A stretch of 64,000 nucleotides of DNA. Origin: Endomicrobiales bacterium (GTDB lineage Bacteria; Elusimicrobiota; Endomicrobiia; Endomicrobiales; CAWCFT01). Positions within the stretch are counted from its first letter, which is position 1; each line of letters opens with the position of its first letter. The stretch lies in assembly GCA_963794945.1 (NCBI GenBank), contig CAWCFT010000001.1, forward strand, positions 128,001-192,000, given 5' to 3'. The position numbers and the translations under genes were made by a program. The notes under the pieces were generated by a model. It had not been told where the DNA came from, did no database searches, and saw only the letters and a list, made by a program, of their open reading frames with translations. Shown here piece by piece: positions 8,518 to 47,541 of the stretch.

Positions 8518-9160
8518 GCTTCCAATCCAGCTTCCGTTTTGCTTACATCTGTCTTCGCGAGGCCGCCTCTGGCGGGCGTGGCGATCTTGATGTTCGCCTT
8601 CCTTTCAGCTTCAATTCAAGATTCCAATTTGCTTCCAGTTAAGCTTCATGTTTGCTTCCAATTCAGCTTCCATTCTGCTTCCATCAAGCTTCCCTTAAGC
8701 TTCCTTTTTGCTTCTAGTTTAGCTTCCATTTCGGCTTCTATTTTGCTTCCATTCGTCTTCGCGAGTCCGCCTCTGGCGGGCGTGGCGATCTCGATGTTAG
8801 CCTTCCTTTCAGCTTCCATTCAAGCTTCCATTTTGCTTCCAGTTAAGCTTCATTTTCGCCAACATTCCGCGCATTAAACTCCTTCGCCCAGCAAGTCAAA
8901 TCCGCCGTGGTAGGCAGGTGGTATAAATGTTTGTCAAACTTCCTCTCCATTGATGGGAGAGGATTGAGGTGAGGGTGAGATTGACCAACTTTCAGCTTCC
9001 TATTTGCTTCCAATTAAGCTTCCGTTTTGCTTCCATCTGTCTTCGCGAGTCCGCCTCTGGCGGGCGTGGCGATCACGACGTTAGCCTTCCTTTCAGCTTC
9101 CATTCAAGCTTCCTTTTTGCTTCCAAATCAGCTTCCATTAATGCTTCCCTATCAGCTTCC
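8518..9160. repeat. Array of GCTTC(C) motifs at 11-12 bp spacing with three embedded REP half-elements
   Basis: 28 GCTTC counted; GTCTTCGCGAGKCCGCCTCTGGCGGGCGTGGCGATC at 8551, 8755, 9039. Confidence 0.85.
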
Positions 9161-9666: not shown

Positions 9667-11012
9667 TGATAATATGAAAGCAACCTCCATCTAGTTTTGT
9701 TAAACTTATTGTATCGAGCAATAAGACAAAACGAGGAGGTTGCCATGAATTATGTTGGTGTAGACTTGCACAAAGAGCGTTCTTGGTTTTACGTGACGAA
9801 CGAGCAGGGCAAACGGATTGACAGCCAGAGTATAGCAAATTTGCCAGAAGTGTTGCGATCATATTATAAAACGCTCCCACGACCATTTACACTTGCAGTT
9901 GAAACGACTTACAATTGGTACTATTTCGTTGATCTCGCCGAAGAATATGCTTACAAGGTGTATCTTGCGAATTCGTACGAGCTGAAAGCATTTGCAAAAC
10001 GAAACAAGAAAACAGAACAAGATAGATGCCCGGCTTATAGCCGATGTGCTCCGTAAGGGCTATTTACCTACAGTAGAGCTGCCAAACAAGAAGATACGAG
10101 CTATTAAAGAACTGTTGCATTGCCGGATGAGCATTGTCAGTGAACGAACGCGGAACACAGCACGGTTAAAGTCACTTCTTGATCGCCATGGACAGATGTC
10201 AACGGGTGACTATACTTCAATGAAGCAATTGAACGGTATTGCGGTGAACAAATTATCTGAACCGTGCCGGATTGCCGCAGAAAACTGGATTGAGCAAATA
10301 GGCGCTTTGAATGCGCGTGAAAACCGTATCGGGTGGCAACTACATGCAATAGCCGAAAGTGATCCCGACGCACGGAATCTTGAAAGTATTCCTGGGATCG
10401 GCAGTTTTAGTGCATTGCTTATTAAAAGCGAGATAGGCGATATTAGCCGTTTTACAACATTTAACCGCCTCTGCGCGTACGCAGGCCTTGCACCGAGAAC
10501 ATTCCAGAGCGCCGACAAAGAATATCACGGTTCTTTAAATAAGAATCGGCGTAAACACCTACAGTGGATATTGATTGAGGCAGTTCACCATTTTTCAAAG
10601 AGAGCGTTGAACGAACAGAAAAGTATGAAGCTATAGCCAAACGGAAAGCGCCCAACGTGGCGCGAGTGGCTCTTGCCAGAGATTTATTGAAAATTGTGTA
10701 TCGAGTTTTGAAAGATAAGCGGCCATATTATATACGGACTACGGCGTCCCTCGCGCTCAATGGTGCCTGAAGTGTCCGCCGCAAGGCTGACAGCTTCAAC
10801 AAGTCTGATTAGCGGAGGGGCGTCGCCCGATTCTATCATGCAGTCCGCCAAGTGCAGAGCTGCCAATAGGTGACTGAAGTCCGGATATTTTCGGAGCTTC
10901 TTACGATACAAAGCGGGCGAACGGCCAAAGAACTTGTTTAACAGAACAGATCAGTAGTTAGAAACTACTGCGGAGATACTTTTTGTCACCTTGACTTTTT
11001 CTTTCATAGGTG
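9667..11012 (+). mobile_element. IS110-family (IS1111-type) element, copy 1; transposase 9745-10770 frameshifted
   Basis: Near-identical to 14565-15910 and 43618-44964; ends TG-ATAA-TATGAAAG ... CTTTCATA-GG-TG. Confidence 0.95.
10744..10925 (+). ncRNA. Predicted bridge/seek RNA in IS right non-coding end (also in copies 2 and 3)
   Basis: Internal loop carrying AATGGTGCC and ACAAGTCTG matches insertion flanks; TATCA and ATAGGTGA match circle junction; 3' end uncertain. Confidence 0.8.
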
Positions 11013-11042
11013 ACACCGTTCATCGAATGGTAGTTTGGGGAA

Positions 11043-11124
11043 TCGCAAACTTGGAACAGTCACCTCAGGCAATCGCCGGCCTCTTGACGAGACCCGCCAG
11101 TTGTTTTTGGCGGGCCTGACTCCA
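11043..11124 (+). repeat. Structured ~100-bp repeat, diverged copy
   Basis: Homologous to reverse complement of 15951-16059 and 16938-17046. Confidence 0.85.
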
Positions 11125-11151
11125 CTTAATATTTTACTAACACCAATTTCT

Positions 11152-12258
11152 TTAGATTGCCAATACATTTCTTAAAGCTGAATCGATTTCATCCCAATCT
11201 TTAATCCAGCAAACAGCAACCCCTAAATGGTGAAGACCGCATTCCATAATATCACGCAACCATTTTTCTTTCGGTAAAACATTAACCCACACATGGTATG
11301 CAGGAATTTTAGCGCCTCCTGAAATAACGTCAATGTCATTAATATTATTTTTATGTGTCCAAGCCAACCATTTTCTGATATTTAAATCGCTTAGCGAATG
11401 CCCTATTATCAGCATTCTTGTTGTTTGAGCATAATATAGAAAAGTCGACTGAGTCCAGGAAGACATGTTACCAGCTATATCCAAATAATCTTTCTCTCGA
11501 AATACAAGTTTATCTCTTGAATCTCTTCGATGTTCCTTTAAGGCTACTTTAACGTTAGGCGCAATCGCACCATGACTATAAATGAATGGAATGCTCCCAT
11601 GCCATACATATTGTGACCTAAATACACTTTGATATTTCCTCTTCGGCCTCACGTGTTGCCCTATTTTTGTTTCATGTTCATTAATTGCTAGTACATCTGT
11701 AATTGTATATAAAAGAGTATCTGCATTAAAACTGAGTACCGCTGTTGGGGCTTTGGGTGTATCAACTAAGTCGTTTAATATCCGAGAAAGACTAAAGATT
11801 GTCGTTTGCTTAAATTCTTTTTCCAAAAATACATATAGCTTTTCCATTTGACGTAGTTTTAAATATCTCGGATCACTCAATGCTATAATCAGCTCTTTTG
11901 TTACATTATATGTGGTAGCCTTTTTGAATAGATCATTATAAAGAGCTGACCCAAGAATTGAAATAAACTTTCTCGCATCAGTGCTACTGGAGTCTATAAT
12001 ATTTTCGGCTGCTTGAATATAGGCATCTAGACCCCAGCCCGTATTTACACAAGCTTTTTTAAATTCATCAAATGCTATTTTTGTCTTAAAAGCATCCTGC
12101 AGTACATGCCAAGTCAATTCACTCCAATTAGGAACTAACCCAGTAGAAGTTCCGGCTCCAATGCATAAAGTCCAAGGAACATTGCTTACGCTTCCCCTAT
12201 ATTTAGTTTCCAGTCCAAAGAAGGACTCTTTCAATGGTCGTACACATTTGACAAGCAT
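11152..12258 (-). CDS. SIR2-like (SIR2_2) protein
   Basis: IGAGTS..PNW, SFNADTL, YSHG, IIGHSLSDLNIR. Confidence 0.8.
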   Translation of the reverse strand: MLVKCVRPLKESFFGLETKYRGSVSNVPWTLCIGAGTSTGLVPNWSELTWHVLQDAFKTKIAFDEFKKACVNTGWGLDAYIQAAENIIDSSSTDARKFISILGSALYNDLFKKATTYNVTKELIIALSDPRYLKLRQMEKLYVFLEKEFKQTTIFSLSRILNDLVDTPKAPTAVLSFNADTLLYTITDVLAINEHETKIGQHVRPKRKYQSVFRSQYVWHGSIPFIYSHGAIAPNVKVALKEHRRDSRDKLVFREKDYLDIAGNMSSWTQSTFLYYAQTTRMLIIGHSLSDLNIRKWLAWTHKNNINDIDVISGGAKIPAYHVWVNVLPKEKWLRDIMECGLHHLGVAVCWIKDWDEIDSALRNVLAI

Positions 12259-12318
12259 TGTTCGCTCCTTAAAATAGGAACTTTGACTTTAGTGAAAACG
12301 TTAGCCTGACACCATTTC

Positions 12319-14535
12319 TTATTCTTCTTGCCTGTTATTTTTTTGTATTGTATCTAAAATATTGTGTGTGTGCAACCGCAATTTCATTGCCTCTTCCGCT
12401 GTTAATTCGTCAGAGTGAGCAATTTTATTTCTTATCGATTGAAGCTCAATAAACTTCGAGTAAAATAGTTCCTTACTTGAAAATACTTCTTTAAACACTT
12501 CTTCCCAATTATCTCTCCTCGCAATTATTTTATAGTAATCCGGAAAATCAACTGATATCATTTTTGATTTTTCTTCAGGTATTGCCCATGGATATATATT
12601 TTCTTTTTTACTGTGCCTGTCTTCGGCATTTTCCTTCACATCTGAAGGTATCCTTTCATTCCACCAATTACTACTAATACCATTAAGCTTAGTTTCAACA
12701 AATGTTCTTAAATTGACCTCCAGGTCTTTCAAAATATTATAAGGCTCTGACTTTTGGTAAGCCATTTTCTTTCTCTTCTCAATATCCTTAATATATTCTA
12801 TGGCAAACAACTCATTTGACTTATTAATTGTTTCGATGATCATCAATGCAATGTTTGCTCGCCCAGCTTCATTACTTGTCATTGCACGGTATTCTTTAAT
12901 TTTTGAATAATTATTTAAAAAGAATGCAATAATCGGCTCTTTTATTAAATCTTCTACTTTTCTCTTATCCCATACACCTTTGAAATATTGCAACACCTCA
13001 ACCAAAACTCTTGTGAATATATTGAAACCATTGTTATGAAGAATAAAACCTTTTTTCCACTCATGATATTCCTCCGCAAATGAATCTATGAGGGTAAAAT
13101 ATTCATTAATGACTTTCTCGGGGAAGACAAGAATACTATCGGGAAAAGGAATCGTTTCGCTTACTTCTCCATTTTTTTGGTATAGGTTATACGTTCCCTT
13201 AACAAGCGGATCAATAATCTTTCTGTCATATAAAGTATTGCATATGTTAGCTAATTTTAGGGGATATGCCGATGCTTTGCGTTGTTGGTGTCTAGGAATA
13301 AGAATTTTACCCTTGAAATATCCAGTTTTATTAAGTTCTTTTGCTATTTTGGTTATTGCACCCTGAATAGAATTCGGATCAGTTTGTGAAAGCAAATCCC
13401 ATAACAAATTTGGATCTACAGATTTCTGTTTTTGATTAATATCAATAAAATCTCTAGCTTGTTGTTTTTTTCCAATATCTTGATATGCTGTAACACTAAT
13501 ACAATATTTTAGTTTCTCGGTATTAGCTTGGGTGTAGCCATAAATTCTATGTTGCCCATCGATGATCCAAACGCTACCATATATTTTGGGGATAGAAAGT
13601 ATCCCAAACGCCATATTGGTATCTTGCAGAAGTAATCCAGTATTTTTTGGCTCAAATGTCACTTGCTTTTCAAAACTACAAACCACATTGTTTTTAAAAA
13701 ACCCTCCATTGTCAATGTATTCAGCTATACCAGGCTCTTCTGTTGTTCCAAAAATACGTTTTTCATTAATAAATCTCTGGTAAGCATCTTCATTTCCAGA
13801 TTGAAGCCTGAACACGTAAACTAAATTCAATAGTTTTTCAACTGGTATATAAAAACTAAATATTTCTTGGTCTCCAATTGTTACTTTAAAACTTGGGACT
13901 TTATAATCAGCACTGCCTTCCTCATCTTTAATATACTTCGGTGTACAATTCAATTCTTTAAGAACATAATGAAATGTTAAAGAGCCAATTACTTTATATA
14001 ATCTTTCAAGAACATCAATATATCTACTGCACCACAAATATACATCGTTGACTCGTGCAGTCTCTATATCTTTAGGATCAATGTCAATATCATCAACCAC
14101 AAGAACATATCTTACCTCATTATATTTTGATCCGTATTTCTCAGCAATTGCCTTATTAATCTCTATTTGTTTTCCCTTAAAGATATCAATTTCATTTGCG
14201 ATACTTTTTTTCTTAGGCTGATCAGCACTTTTACATTCGACCACAAGCAACGTTCCATTCTTACCACCAACAGCATCTATTTGATATCTACCAAGCCAAG
14301 AATTATAGCCAGATTCAATATCATCAAAACCCAATATTTCAAGCAGAATTCTTACTCTTTCTTGAAATAATTCCCATTTTTTAAATTTTTTCTCTAAAAT
14401 AATCTTCCCATTATCAGTTTTTTTAATTAGGAAACCAACTTTCTTAAAAGATTCTATTTCATCCTTATTTTCCAACTCAATCTCAACTAATTTATTCTTT
14501 TGAGGACTAGGCACTTTCCATTTACTTTGCTTCAT
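12319..14535 (-). CDS. PD-(D/E)xK nuclease + DGQHR (DndB/ParB-like) + Swt1-like HEPN multidomain protein
   Basis: QIDAVG...VVECKS; YQR...IIDGQHR...FIDIN; WWNERIP...RNKIAH; start MKQSKW behind AAGGAG. Confidence 0.85.
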   Translation of the reverse strand: MKQSKWKVPSPQKNKLVEIELENKDEIESFKKVGFLIKKTDNGKIILEKKFKKWELFQERVRILLEILGFDDIESGYNSWLGRYQIDAVGGKNGTLLVVECKSADQPKKKSIANEIDIFKGKQIEINKAIAEKYGSKYNEVRYVLVVDDIDIDPKDIETARVNDVYLWCSRYIDVLERLYKVIGSLTFHYVLKELNCTPKYIKDEEGSADYKVPSFKVTIGDQEIFSFYIPVEKLLNLVYVFRLQSGNEDAYQRFINEKRIFGTTEEPGIAEYIDNGGFFKNNVVCSFEKQVTFEPKNTGLLLQDTNMAFGILSIPKIYGSVWIIDGQHRIYGYTQANTEKLKYCISVTAYQDIGKKQQARDFIDINQKQKSVDPNLLWDLLSQTDPNSIQGAITKIAKELNKTGYFKGKILIPRHQQRKASAYPLKLANICNTLYDRKIIDPLVKGTYNLYQKNGEVSETIPFPDSILVFPEKVINEYFTLIDSFAEEYHEWKKGFILHNNGFNIFTRVLVEVLQYFKGVWDKRKVEDLIKEPIIAFFLNNYSKIKEYRAMTSNEAGRANIALMIIETINKSNELFAIEYIKDIEKRKKMAYQKSEPYNILKDLEVNLRTFVETKLNGISSNWWNERIPSDVKENAEDRHSKKENIYPWAIPEEKSKMISVDFPDYYKIIARRDNWEEVFKEVFSSKELFYSKFIELQSIRNKIAHSDELTAEEAMKLRLHTHNILDTIQKNNRQEE

Positions 14536-14564
14536 TTTACTCTCCTTTGATAAAATAACGGTGT

Positions 14565-15910
14565 CACCTATGAAAGAAAAAGTCAAGGTGACAAAAAGTA
14601 TCTCCGCAGTAGTTTCTAACTACTGATCTGTTCTGTTAAACAAGTTCTTTGGCCGTTCGCCCGCTTTGTATCGTAAGAAGCTCCGAAAATATCCGGACTT
14701 CAGTCACCTATTGGCAGCTCTGCACTTGGCGGACTGCATGATAGAATCGGGCGACGCCCCTCCGCTAATCAGACTTGTTGAAGCTGTCAGCCTTGCGGCG
14801 GACACTTCAGGCACCATTGAGCGCGAGGGACGCCGTAGTCCGTATATAATATGGCCGCTTATCTTTCAAAACTCGATACACAATTTTCAATAAATCTCTG
14901 GCAAGAGCCACTCGCGCCACGTTGGGCGCTTTCCGTTTGGCTATAGCTTCATACTTTTCTGTTCGTTCAACGCTGCTCTTTGAAAAATGGTGAACTGCCT
15001 CAATCAATATCCACTGTAGGTGTTTACGCCGATTCTTATTTAAAGAACCGTGATATTCTTTGTCGGCGCTCTGGAATGTTCTCGGTGCAAGGCCTGCGTA
15101 CGCGCAGAGGCGGTTAAATGTTGTAAAACGGCTAATATCGCCTATCTCGCTTTTAATAAGCAATGCACTAAAACTGCCGATCCCAGGAATACTTTCAAGA
15201 TTCCGTGCGTCGGGATCACTTTCGGCTATTGCATGTAGTTGCCACCCGATACGGTTTTCACGCGCATTCAAAGCGCCTATTTGCTCAATCCAGTTTTCTG
15301 CGGCAATCCGGCACGGTTCAGATAATTTGTTCACCGCAATACCGTTCAATTGCTTCATTGAAGTATAGTCACCCGTTGACATCTGTCCATGGCGATCAAG
15401 AAGTGACTTTAACCGTGCTGTGTTCCGCGTTCGTTCACTGACAATGCTCATCCGGCAATGCAACAGTTCTTTAATAGCTCGTATCTTCTTGTCTGGCAGC
15501 TCTACTGTAGGTAAATAGCCCTTACGGAGCACATCGGCTATAAGCCGGGCATCTATCTTGTCTGTTTTCTTGTTTCGTTTTGCAAATGCTTTCAGCTCGT
15601 ACGAATTCGCAAGATACACCTTGTAAGCATATTCTTCGGCGAGATCAACGAAATAGTACCAATTGTAAGTCGTTTCAACTGCAAGTGTAAATGGTCGTGG
15701 GAGCGTTTTATAATATGATCGCAACACTTCTGGCAAATTTGCTATACTCTGGCTGTCAATCCGTTTGCCCTGCTCGTTCGTCACGTAAAACCAAGAACGC
15801 TCTTTGTGCAAGTCTACACCAACATAATTCATGGCAACCTCCTCGTTTTGTCTTATTGCTCGATACAATAAGTTTAACAAAACTAGATGGAGGTTGCTTT
15901 CATATTATCA
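14565..15910 (-). mobile_element. IS110-family (IS1111-type) element, copy 2 (intact)
   Basis: 1346 bp between TG cores; same ends as copies 1 and 3. Confidence 0.95.
14807..15832 (-). CDS. IS110 DEDD transposase/recombinase
   Basis: GVDLHK, AVET, KTDKIDA, SIPGIG, AYAGLAPRTFQSA; GGAGG RBS before MNYVG. Confidence 0.97.
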   Translation of the reverse strand: MNYVGVDLHKERSWFYVTNEQGKRIDSQSIANLPEVLRSYYKTLPRPFTLAVETTYNWYYFVDLAEEYAYKVYLANSYELKAFAKRNKKTDKIDARLIADVLRKGYLPTVELPDKKIRAIKELLHCRMSIVSERTRNTARLKSLLDRHGQMSTGDYTSMKQLNGIAVNKLSEPCRIAAENWIEQIGALNARENRIGWQLHAIAESDPDARNLESIPGIGSFSALLIKSEIGDISRFTTFNRLCAYAGLAPRTFQSADKEYHGSLNKNRRKHLQWILIEAVHHFSKSSVERTEKYEAIAKRKAPNVARVALARDLLKIVYRVLKDKRPYYIRTTASLALNGA

Positions 15911-43138: not shown

Positions 43139-43608
43139 TTTTTTAGGGCTTTTTTCATGTTTGCCGCGAAATCAGGCGCGGGGTTATAGCCGACCATCTT
43201 GTCTATGACTGTCCCATCAGGATTTATGAATACTATAGTAGGAAGGCCCTGCACACCGTATTTAGACGCGTCCTGTCCGTACTTGTCCGTGTCAACCTTA
43301 ACGCACACGAAATTCTTTGAAAGCGCAATGACCTCAGGGTCCGTATAAACATCCTTGTCAAGTTTCTTGCACCAGCCGCACCATTCCGCAAAAAAGTCAA
43401 CCATGAGCGGTTTTTTTGACGATTGGCCAAGTGCCAGACCGCCGGCTAGCGTGTAAGACCAGTTTATTGAGCCTTCCGCCGCGTTAACAGCAGCAGTTTT
43501 CTGTGTGTTTGCAGAAGCGTTTTCGGCTTTTCCTTCCCTGCAGCCGACAAGCATAACAGCGCAAAATACCGCGAACGCGAACAGTTTCATTTTCATAATT
43601 GCCTCCAT
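43135..43608 (-). CDS. Thioredoxin-like lipoprotein
   Basis: LVGC lipobox, WCGWC, GLPT. Confidence 0.9.
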   Translation of the reverse strand: MEAIMKMKLFAFAVFCAVMLVGCREGKAENASANTQKTAAVNAAEGSINWSYTLAGGLALGQSSKKPLMVDFFAEWCGWCKKLDKDVYTDPEVIALSKNFVCVKVDTDKYGQDASKYGVQGLPTIVFINPDGTVIDKMVGYNPAPDFAANMKKALKK

Positions 43609-43617
43609 CTAAGGTAC

Positions 43618-44964
43618 CACCTATGAAAGAAAAAGTCAAGGTGACAAAAAGTATCTCCGCAGTAGTTTCTAACTACTGATCTGTTCTGTTAAACAAGTTC
43701 TTTGGCCGTTCGCCCGCTTTGTATCGTAAGAAGCTCCGAAAATATCCGGACTTCAGTCACCTATTGGCAGCTCTGCACTTGGCGGACTGCATGATAGAAT
43801 CGGGCGACGCCCCTCCGCTAATCAGACTTGTTGAAGCTGTCAGCCTTGCGGCGGACACTTCAGGCACCATTGAGCGCGAGGGACGCCGTAGTCCGTATAT
43901 AATATGGCCGCTTATCTTTCAAAACTCGATACACAATTTTCAATAAATCTCTGGCAAGAGCCACTCGCGCCACGTTGGGCGCTTTCCGTTTGGCTATAGC
44001 TTCATACTTTTCTGTTCGTTCAACGCTGCTCTTTGAAAAATGGTGAACTGCCTCAATCAATATCCACTGTAGGTGTTTACGCCGATTCTTATTTAAAGAA
44101 CCGTGATATTCTTTGTCGGCGCTCTGGAATGTTCTCGGTGCAAGGCCTGCGTACGCGCAGAGGCGGTTAAATGTTGTAAAACGGCTAATATCGCCTATCT
44201 CGCTTTTAATAAGCAACGCACCAAAACTGCCTATCCCAGGAATACTTTCAAGATTCCGCGCGTCGGGATCACTTTCGGCTATTGCATGTAGTTGCCACCC
44301 GATACGGTTTTCACGCGCATTCAAAGCGCCTATTTGCTCAATCCAGTTTTCTGCGGCAATCCGGCACGGTTCAGATAATTTGTTCACCGCAATACCGTTC
44401 AATTGCTTCATTGAAGTATAGTCACCCGTTGACATCTGTCCATGGCGATCAAGAAGTGACTTTAACCGTGCTGTGTTCCGCGTTCGTTCACTGACAATGC
44501 TCATCCGGCAATGCAACAGTTCTTTAATAGCTCGTATCTTCTTGTTCTGGCAGCTCTACTGTAGGTAAATAGCCCTTACGGAGCACATCGGCTATAAGCC
44601 GGGCATCTATCTTGTTTGTTTTCTTGTTTCGTTTTGCAAATGCTTTCAGCTCGTACGAATTCGCAAGATACACCTTGTAAGCATATTCTTCGGCGAGATC
44701 AACGAAATAGTACCAATTGTAAGTCGTTTCAACTGCAAGTGTAAATGGTCGTGGGAGCGTTTTATAATATGATCGCAACACTTCTGGCAAATTTGCTATA
44801 CTCTGGCTGTCAATCCGTTTGCCCTGCTCGTTCGTCACGTAAAACCAAGAACGCTCTTTGTGCAAGTCTACACCAACATAATTCATGGCAACCTCCTCGT
44901 TTTGTCTTATTGCTCGATACAATAAGTTTAACAAAACTAGATGGAGGTTGCTTTCATATTATCA
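43618..44964 (-). mobile_element. IS110-family (IS1111-type) element, copy 3; transposase frameshifted
   Basis: 1347 bp, near-identical to copy 2; inserted between nadA and thioredoxin gene. Confidence 0.95.
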
Positions 44965-47382: not shown

Positions 47383-47394
47383 AGTAACGAAATC

Positions 47395-47492
47395 TGACAA
47401 TTCCCTCCGCTGGCATTACCCAGATCAGGTTCATAAGGTAATCCCGCTCTACGGGAACTCTCAGAGCCGTCCTACGGCCCTCCCTTTTTGAC
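47395..47492 (-). ncRNA. TPP riboswitch
   Basis: GGG...CTGAGA...ACCTTATGAACCTGATCTGGGTAATGCCAGCGGAGGGAA upstream of thiM; promoter TTGACA-17-TAAAAT upstream. Confidence 0.96.
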
Positions 47493-47541
47493 ACAGCAAT
47501 TTTACCACAAAGCCCGGCGGTTGTCAAATTGAGTAATGAAA

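Follow-up and report, generated by a model that had tools for sequence, protein, structure and literature searches.

A probable guide RNA at the right end of an IS1111-type insertion sequence in an Endomicrobiales bacterium

The stretch of DNA analysed (the window) comprises 64,000 nucleotides (nt) of an Endomicrobiales bacterium, positions 128,001 to 192,000 of contig CAWCFT010000001.1 (assembly GCA_963794945.1, forward strand). It carries three copies of an insertion sequence (IS) of the IS110 family. In copy 1, the segment from 10743 to about 10920, at the downstream end of the transposase gene, is with a probability of roughly 0.8 the guide RNA of the element, which is of IS1111 type (bridge RNA, or 'long seekRNA'). 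Its helices covary among relatives. The internal loop of its first module agrees with the insertion sites of the element and, across relatives, varies together with the flanking DNA. The second module holds strands that match the joined ends of the element and may serve as donor guides. The parts of the RNA are as follows.

10743..10757, + strand: P1, 5' strand (outer stem of the target loop); helices 1–2, 10/14 pairs compensatory; within the last transposase codons
10759..10767, + strand: right-target guide AAUGGUGCC on the 5' loop side; complementary to G plus right flank of the top strand; own-flank agreement supported at about 10762–10767
10769..10797, + strand: P2 hairpin (inner stem); helix 3, 5/9 pairs compensatory; the invariant UGAAG from 10768 contains the stop codon (10768–10770)
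10799..10807, + strand: left-target guide ACAAGUCUG on the 3' loop side; reads in the sense of left flank plus TG; supported at 10801–10807
10811..10824, + strand: P1, 3' strand; from RNAfold and covariation
10834..10838, + strand: putative right-donor guide UAUCA; complementary to TG plus ATA (core and start of the left end)
10840..10863, + strand: P4 hairpin, between the donor-guide strands; helix 4, 5/8 pairs compensatory
10866..10873, + strand: putative left-donor guide AUAGGUGA; same sense as ATAGG of the right end plus TG plus the first base of the left end
10876..10900, + strand: P5 hairpin, adjoining the 3' side of the left-donor guide; helix 5, 5/9 pairs compensatory; CUGAAG...GCUUC frame as in P2
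10901..10920, + strand: conserved single strand UUACGAUAC..., then CGGGCGA; GAUA at 10905–10908 in the sense of G plus ATA of the left end

Five copies of the element are present in the genome, three in the window (repeat search and alignment) and two on contigs 2 and 3 (BLAST). They are mutually 98.7–100% identical, and the 3'-terminal 268 nt are the same in 5/5. Each starts with ATAATATG, ends with CATAGG and is flanked by TG at both ends; TG, proposed as the core in the preliminary description of this DNA, is shared by all five copies without further duplication, and the flanks belong to one site family. A circle junction ATAGG-TG-ATA is deduced from the two ends. The inverted repeat is 8 base pairs (bp) long and inset 4 nt (left) and 2 nt (right) from the element ends. 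The non-coding end is 76 nt upstream of the gene (9669–9744) versus 240 nt downstream (10771–11010). Because of these unequal ends and the subterminal repeat, the element is assigned, on its sequence, to the IS1111 type, for which a long non-coding end downstream of the gene and subterminal inverted repeats of 7–17 bp are described (PMC11187229; PMC11208160), with transposases of 330–350 residues (PMC11187229). The features of the element are as follows.

9669..11010, + strand: IS copy 1, 1342 bp, ATAATATG... to ...CATAGG; TG at 9667–9668 and 11011–12
9673..9680, + strand: subterminal inverted repeat, left arm TATGAAAG, read from the sequence
9745..10770, + strand: transposase gene of copy 1, disrupted (+1 near 10017, −1 near 10602)
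10991..10996, + strand: TTGACT near the right end, read from the sequence
11001..11008: subterminal inverted repeat, right arm CTTTCATA, read from the sequence
14567..15908, − strand: IS copy 2, intact transposase of 341 residues at 14807–15832; RNA region at about 14657–14834 by mapping
43620..44962, − strand: IS copy 3, transposase frameshifted; RNA region at about 43710–43887 by mapping

In the circle junction, TTGACT would precede TAATAT (9670–9675) by 17 nt, and the TG core would form an extended −10. Relatives carry TTGACA at the corresponding place. Junction promoters are known in the IS1111 family (PMC11187229).

The protein is classed by its domains as an IS110-family DEDD recombinase, in agreement with the family membership given in the preliminary description. 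The intact protein of 341 residues contains PF01548 (E=8e-25) and PF02371 (E=2e-19) and scores 221.8 bits with NCBIfam NF033542, 'IS110 family RNA-guided transposase' (cut-off 140). The length first proposed applies to copy 2 and to the contig-3 copy, in which the frame is open; the gene at the coordinates originally given is itself frameshifted, with its two shifts 586 nt apart. The genes of copy 3 (44500 region) and of the contig-2 copy are also frameshifted. Three of the five transposase genes are thus frameshifted, yet the RNA regions are perfectly preserved. The frameshifts may be assembly errors. D7, E53, D91, D94 and G247-L-x-P-x4-S255 are invariant in 15/15 full-length relatives (50–100% identity); alignment with ISCro4 places D7, D91/D94 and S255 opposite its D, D/D and S, and the putative counterparts of IS621 D11/E60/D102/D105/S241 are assigned by motif rather than by structure. 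ISCro4 and IS621 are the closest solved relatives, both distant. In tblastn over 95% of the query, identity is 25.0% with ISEc11, 21.1% with IS4321 and 20.8% with IS5075 (family genes on plasmids; values low). The motif GLAPRTFQSA corresponds to GL-P----S(T)G of IS1111; the final pair is SA in 13/15 and SG in 2/15 relatives, and the published list gives SG, TG and occasionally TA.

Relatives were obtained by a protein scan of species genomes (4 loci), by a search of 401 genomes of the phylum (a few more, at 55–59% identity) and by probing metagenome contigs with a 17-mer common to the 3' ends of the relatives. The probe gave at least 120 stretches, many of them chance matches; flanks were taken for 80. 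At least 131 loci carry the 17-mer motif, 60 of them also an upstream UAUCAUG-like string, and 39 of those a complete first module. The alignment (A4) comprises 28 distinct RNAs; it omits L033 and L095, which have long inserts, as well as L056 and L145. Element ends were located by terminus patterns, and the flanks were compared with the 9 nt that precede UGAAG (5' strand) and AUUAG (3' strand). For L006 (both ends) and L140 (right end), the end was selected manually from several candidates. The 3' end of a distant homologue (L008, 34% identity) could not be aligned with this RNA. Four metagenome loci (L055, L086, L060, L073) consist of the second module and right end only, with neither transposase gene nor target module and with no left end; they resemble remnants of right ends left by truncation, or else small non-autonomous elements.

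The two stems enclosing an internal loop in the preliminary description are reproduced by RNAfold at 10742–10825 as an outer stem, an internal loop and an inner hairpin. In the alignment, the 40 pairs of P1, P2, P4 and P5 are paired in 95.1% of cells, as compared with 81.4% in column shuffles and 37–49% with the partners slid. Compensatory changes occur in 25/40 pairs, and none of five measures was reached in the shuffles (0/500). The loop strands of the second module are invariant; those of the first module vary without a partner. Extra pairs proposed by RNAalifold between loop columns 26–28/75–77 and 111–114/149–152 were excluded from the tested structure; the columns concerned either do not vary or do so on one side only, and they pair in the prediction because both guides cover the core. 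UCGCCCG (10823–10829) can pair with CGGGCGA (10914–10920) to give a closing helix of 7 bp in this clade, compensatory in L083. Family-wide this helix is weak (own 5.04 versus cross 4.59 bp; at least 5 bp in 18/28 own versus 41% of cross pairs), and it is therefore kept for this clade only, where it would make the donor module a three-way junction with P4 and P5. Because the GAUA strand and the closing helix follow P5, the 3' limit of the RNA lies probably near 10920 and not at 10880, where it had been placed at first. Structural variants were seen among the relatives: in L001 a deletion between CTTCC repeats has removed the left-target guide, the 3' loop strand of L095 is interrupted by an insert of 32 nt, and in L033 and L056 inserts separate the two modules.

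The strings on which the preliminary description was built are present where it placed them: AATGGTGCC at 10759–10767, followed by TGA (10768–10770), ACAAGTCTG at 10799–10807, TATCA at 10834–10838 and ATAGGTGA at 10866–10873. The five sites read TCAAGCCTG, ACAAGTCTG, TGAAGCCTG, TCAAGCCTG and CTAAGCCTG for left flank plus TG, and GACACCGTT, GGTACCTTA, GACACCGTT, GACACCATT and GACTCCATG for G plus right flank. Flank matches of 7/9, 6/9 and 8/9, and the complete 9/9 match of the left guide at copy 3, were obtained again, and two additional sites were found. Over both 9-mers, the five sites have 12–15/18 Watson–Crick matches. A score of 12 is reached by 1343 of the 336,121 TG sites of the genome and a score of 14 by 31, which places the insertion sites in the top 0.4% or better. 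Scoring all 18 positions with equal weight fails to single out the repeat family, most of the 31 TG sites at 14 being unoccupied. Four of the five sites lie in a short dispersed repeat (approximately TTAGTTCAATAAGTnAAGCC-TG-ACACC), and 5 uninterrupted copies of AAGCCTGACACC are found elsewhere in the genome. Uninterrupted target repeats (...TTAGTTCAATAAGTAAAGCCTGACACC...) are located at C2:125528, C2(−):51356, C5(−):111346, C9:112598 and C15:89176. In 5000 dinucleotide shuffles of the 3' region, 9/9 to ACAAGTCTG occurs in 0.16% and 8/9 to the right flank in 1.1%; these two together with 8/8 to ATAGGTGA occur in 0/5000.

The target loops of the relatives track their own flanks, which is the comparison that the preliminary description had put forward as a check. 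On the right, agreement is 6.50 of 9 with own flanks versus 5.70 with those of others (26 distinct guide–flank pairs, permutation p=0.00015); on the left, 6.84 versus 4.96 of 9 (19 distinct pairs, p=0.00005). With one pair per distinct guide, p is 0.00045 (right) and 0.00005 (left). On the left the signal comes from the five bases adjoining TG, and on the right it comes chiefly from position 4; the outer 2–3 positions of each 9-mer are chance-like. Of the two guides of 9 nt first described, about 7 nt on the left (TG included) and 6 nt on the right (G plus 5 nt) are thus supported as effective. Because the outer 2–3 nt agree no better with own than with others' flanks, the supported optimum is about AAGTC-TG-GCACC. 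The two strands stand in the order published for IS1111 seekRNAs, the strand complementary to the top strand lying 5' of the same-sense strand (PMC11187229).

The use of the second module as a donor loop is the least certain part of the interpretation. UAUCA and AUAGGUGA lie on either side of P4, with an order and strand sense matching those of the target guides. The match of both to the circle junction, noticed in the preliminary description, is exact: AUAGGUGA fits ATAGG-TG-A in 8/8 and UAUCA fits TG-ATA in 5/5. In 5000 shuffles, 8/8 to ATAGGTGA occurs in 0.22%; TGATA alone occurs in 11% and is not significant. In most relatives the right strand reads AUUAUCA, matching TGATAAT. UAUCAUG is identical in 28/28 RNAs, and the AUAGGUGA strand is identical except at one A/G position, while the adjoining stems vary. 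That position tracks the right end of the element: ATGGG is found in 3/7 elements whose guide has G (AAUGGG) and in 0/32 of those with A (Fisher p=0.004; L073 omitted). A donor function is plausible on these exact matches, the conservation and the one covarying position. Donor loops have also been proposed for three IS1111-group elements (Durrant et al., PMC11208160, Extended Data Fig. 10).

It is improbable, though it fares best among the alternatives, that only the first module (10743–10824) guides, as a short seekRNA. The second module would then be a scaffold, a processing signal or a regulator, the protein would recognise the ends through the subterminal inverted repeats and target-like flanks, and TATCA and ATAGGTGA would go unused. 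This view is favoured by ISEc11, in which transposition reached 42% with an 82-nt short RNA by itself and was lower with the 154-nt form, whose role the authors state to be unknown (PMC11187229); a donor loop may thus be dispensable, since the short RNA without the second module sufficed. The non-significance of TGATA alone, the restriction of donor covariation to one position and the weakness of the closing helix family-wide point the same way. It accounts poorly for an 8/8 match spanning end, core and first base, for the placement of the strands around a covarying hairpin, for the tracking of the right end by the A/G variant and for the invariance of these strands across transposases 50–59% identical while neighbouring stems change.

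That the protein chooses the target is very unlikely. The likeness of loop and flank would then stem from shared descent of the RNA and a preferred repeat, or from a flank copied into the element. Targets of the subfamily are alike and guides are shared by related elements, so the correlation could reflect descent. The likeness, however, goes beyond association: individual letters are identical or complementary, and on the correct strands. The 95 cells of the five positions left of TG comprise 80 Watson–Crick pairs, 15 wobbles and 0 mismatches. All 15 wobbles place G or U of the RNA opposite A or C of the top strand, and the reverse type, with A or C in the guide, does not occur (binomial p=7e-8 versus one third); the one-directional departures therefore fit pairing of the RNA with the bottom strand and are predicted neither by choice of the target by the protein nor by copying of DNA. 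Relatives with changed loops occupy correspondingly changed sites (L045, 9/9 on the right; L096, 8/9 plus one wobble on the left). RNA-determined targeting has been demonstrated experimentally in members of the family (PMC11187229; PMC11208160), and by analogy the present recombinase may be programmable. An ordinary terminator or mRNA-stability element with chance matches is scarcely credible: the structure does sit at the 3' end of the transposase gene, and a lone 7/9 match is at chance level in 268 nt (about 0.7 expected, an estimate), but no T-run follows P1, the three strong matches never coincide in the shuffles, and loop sequences vary with the flanks while the stems covary, which contradicts a terminator.

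Several observations weigh against the guide RNA interpretation or narrow it. The 17-mer that served to select the relatives lies within the donor loop, and the pattern used to find the ends resembles the donor guide; the invariance of the donor loop is therefore partly due to selection. Related elements are not independent, and their targets are alike (AAG-R-Y-Y-TG-ACCCC), hence the narrow range of the covariation. The right-side signal rests mainly on one variable position, and right positions 1–6 (156 cells) contain 137 Watson–Crick pairs, 9 wobbles and 10 mismatches. At 4/5 genomic sites a C.A mismatch lies one base right of TG; 4/5 also have a U.G wobble two bases left of TG, so that the mismatch tolerance noted in the preliminary description is seen. 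No Rfam 15 family reaches its gathering score in the window except the thiamine pyrophosphate (TPP) riboswitch, and none is found at E<=1 in 10650–11060. A promoter scan gave no sigma-70-like site just upstream of the RNA. One metatranscriptome contig of 194 nt is identical to 10809–11001 (copy-1 coordinates); it is a weak hint only, carries no information on transcription, ends or strand, and may be DNA carry-over. No circle junction or empty-site joint was found in the contigs of 4 sequencing runs examined (14 listed), in which uncovered parts are uninformative. A DNA contig of run X1, ending at 14559, runs from the right end through TGACACCG into a flank unlike all five genomic sites and suggests a further insertion site in that sample or an unassembled part of the genome.

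The guide region overlaps the transposase gene. In copy 1, the right guide (10759–10767) is the last three codons, N-G-A, before the stop, in accordance with the coordinates of the preliminary description. In relatives with an intact frame the transposase ends at the UGA within the invariant CUGAAG at the start of P2. The three codons before the stop thus form the right guide, and the C-terminal residues change along with it. L045 and L065 have a guide starting with UAA, and their frame ends three residues early. It is tentatively suggested, as a possibility on the doubtful side, that part of the guide RNA is translated in this IS1111 subfamily: the 5' strand of P1 and the right guide would be the last approximately 9 codons, with the invariant UGA of P2 as the stop. 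Retargeting would rewrite the C-terminal tripeptide (NGA, SGV, CGV, QGV, YGV ...), the right guide being the last codons. If so, the guide must be cut from the transposase mRNA, and guide-making and protein-making compete. It would also follow that the third conserved strand (GAUA...) is a further donor contact and the donor module a three-way junction. A guide within the gene is not described for ISPpu9 in the relevant passages; figures or supplements of the 2024 papers may show such overlaps.

The guide RNA interpretation gives the following scheme. Since no promoter-like site precedes the RNA, co-transcription with the transposase gene is assumed; the RNA would most likely be made in this way (the overlap being the last 27 nt) and then excised. 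The first module (10743–10824, 82 nt) would consist of stem, internal loop and hairpin. Its 5' loop strand would pair with top-strand bases immediately to the right of the TG core, and its 3' loop strand with bottom-strand bases of TG itself and of the stretch adjoining it on the left. In the second module (about 10825–10920), with two hairpins, UAUCA and AUAGGUGA would pair likewise with the joined circle ends (...ATAGG-TG-ATAAT...). A tetramer of the DEDD/serine recombinase would bind the RNA, hold both DNAs on it and exchange strands at TG, as solved for IS621.

Among known systems, the element resembles ISEc11 and other IS1111 elements with seekRNAs in its non-coding end downstream of the gene, its subterminal inverted repeats and its transposase of about 340 residues (PMC11187229). 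As in ISEc11, an RNA of about 82 nt forms an outer stem, an internal loop and a hairpin, with guide strands overlapping at the insertion point (PMC11187229). The sizes, 82 nt (short) and about 178 nt (long), fit IS1111 seekRNAs of 82–96 and 145–172 nt (PMC11187229; PMC13604230). At the ISEc11 locus L149, ACAGTATTTT (1818–1827) and GTGAAAATA (1844–1852) flank a hairpin likewise (target according to PMC13604230). It differs from ISEc11 in the transposase (25% identical over 95% of its length), in the core and target (here TG inside AAGYC-TG-RCACC) and in the position of the RNA, which in ISEc11 begins about 95 nt after the stop and here begins inside the gene, with the stop in the inner stem. 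In the non-coding end of ISEc11, ATATAAAGCTG (L149, 1915–1925) resembles the putative joined ends (...CATATAAA + ACTGG...), which hints at a donor-matching strand there.

With IS621 it shares two loops, a left guide to the bottom strand and a right guide to the top strand over a dinucleotide core, a DEDD and serine recombinase, and wobbles tolerated at the left-target interface (PMC11208160; PMC11208158). It differs in the place of the RNA, described for IS621 in the left end upstream of the gene and here downstream, in the reversed order of the guides within the loops and in the core (CT in IS621, TG here). The proteins align over the C-terminal half only (E=3.7e-13). No counterparts of the IS621 handshake guides were identified in this RNA. 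The IS621 donor loop is a simple internal loop, whereas the donor module here resembles a three-way junction (P4, P5, weak closing helix). The predicted bridge RNAs of ISCARN28, ISAzs32 and ISPa11 likewise lie in the right end, with loops assigned from element boundaries (PMC11208160). Natural wobbles at the left-target interface are reported for IS621 and ISPpu10, in the latter a U.G wobble as here; mismatches in ISPpu10 are tolerated far from the core and not next to it (bioRxiv 10.64898/2026.03.19.712850). ISPpu10 differs in belonging to the IS110 group, with an upstream RNA and a CT core, and its pattern was obtained by mutagenesis, versus natural sites here.

Further features of the window are as follows. 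The TTGACT-bearing right ends of copies 2 and 3 face neighbouring genes, about 20–30 nt upstream of the start codons (14530–14566; 43600–43620); the genes are a DndB-like gene and a gene for a thioredoxin-like lipoprotein. Copies 1 and 2 are inverted, right ends inward, and bracket 3.5 kb (11013–14566) with two minus-strand genes. One encodes a protein of 368 residues with a weak SIR2_2 match (23.8 bits, below the cut-off of 24.5), the other is a frame of 755 residues with DndB and HEPN_Swt1 domains; on these domain matches the two are a possible defence pair in a composite-transposon-like setting. A hairpin of 8 bp, CAGTAGTT-AGA-AACTACTG, lies at 10952–10970 between the RNA and the right end and was flagged by the scan for the minus strand alone. 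A 138-nt unit is present in three tandem-like copies, 84–100% identical, at 8518–9143, shortly before copy 1. The TPP riboswitch is at 47385–47496 (− strand; 66 bits, gathering score 54.3).

That IS110/IS1111 elements are guided to their targets by RNA is established knowledge since 2024 (Durrant 2024; Siddiquee 2024), and a bridge RNA is predicted in 93% of IS1111 elements (PMC11208160). The element described here adds an example and leaves this picture unchanged. It is a well-documented natural case from the IS1111 branch, on which there has been less work than on IS621. A fold backed by covariation, without a counterpart in Rfam, is obtained from about 40 related RNAs. The natural sites reveal which guide positions count, about 12–13 bp in total, with G.T and U.G wobbles freely used beside the core on the left. 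With this element one can test both the sharing of sequence between guide and gene and what the second module does in elements of IS1111 type.

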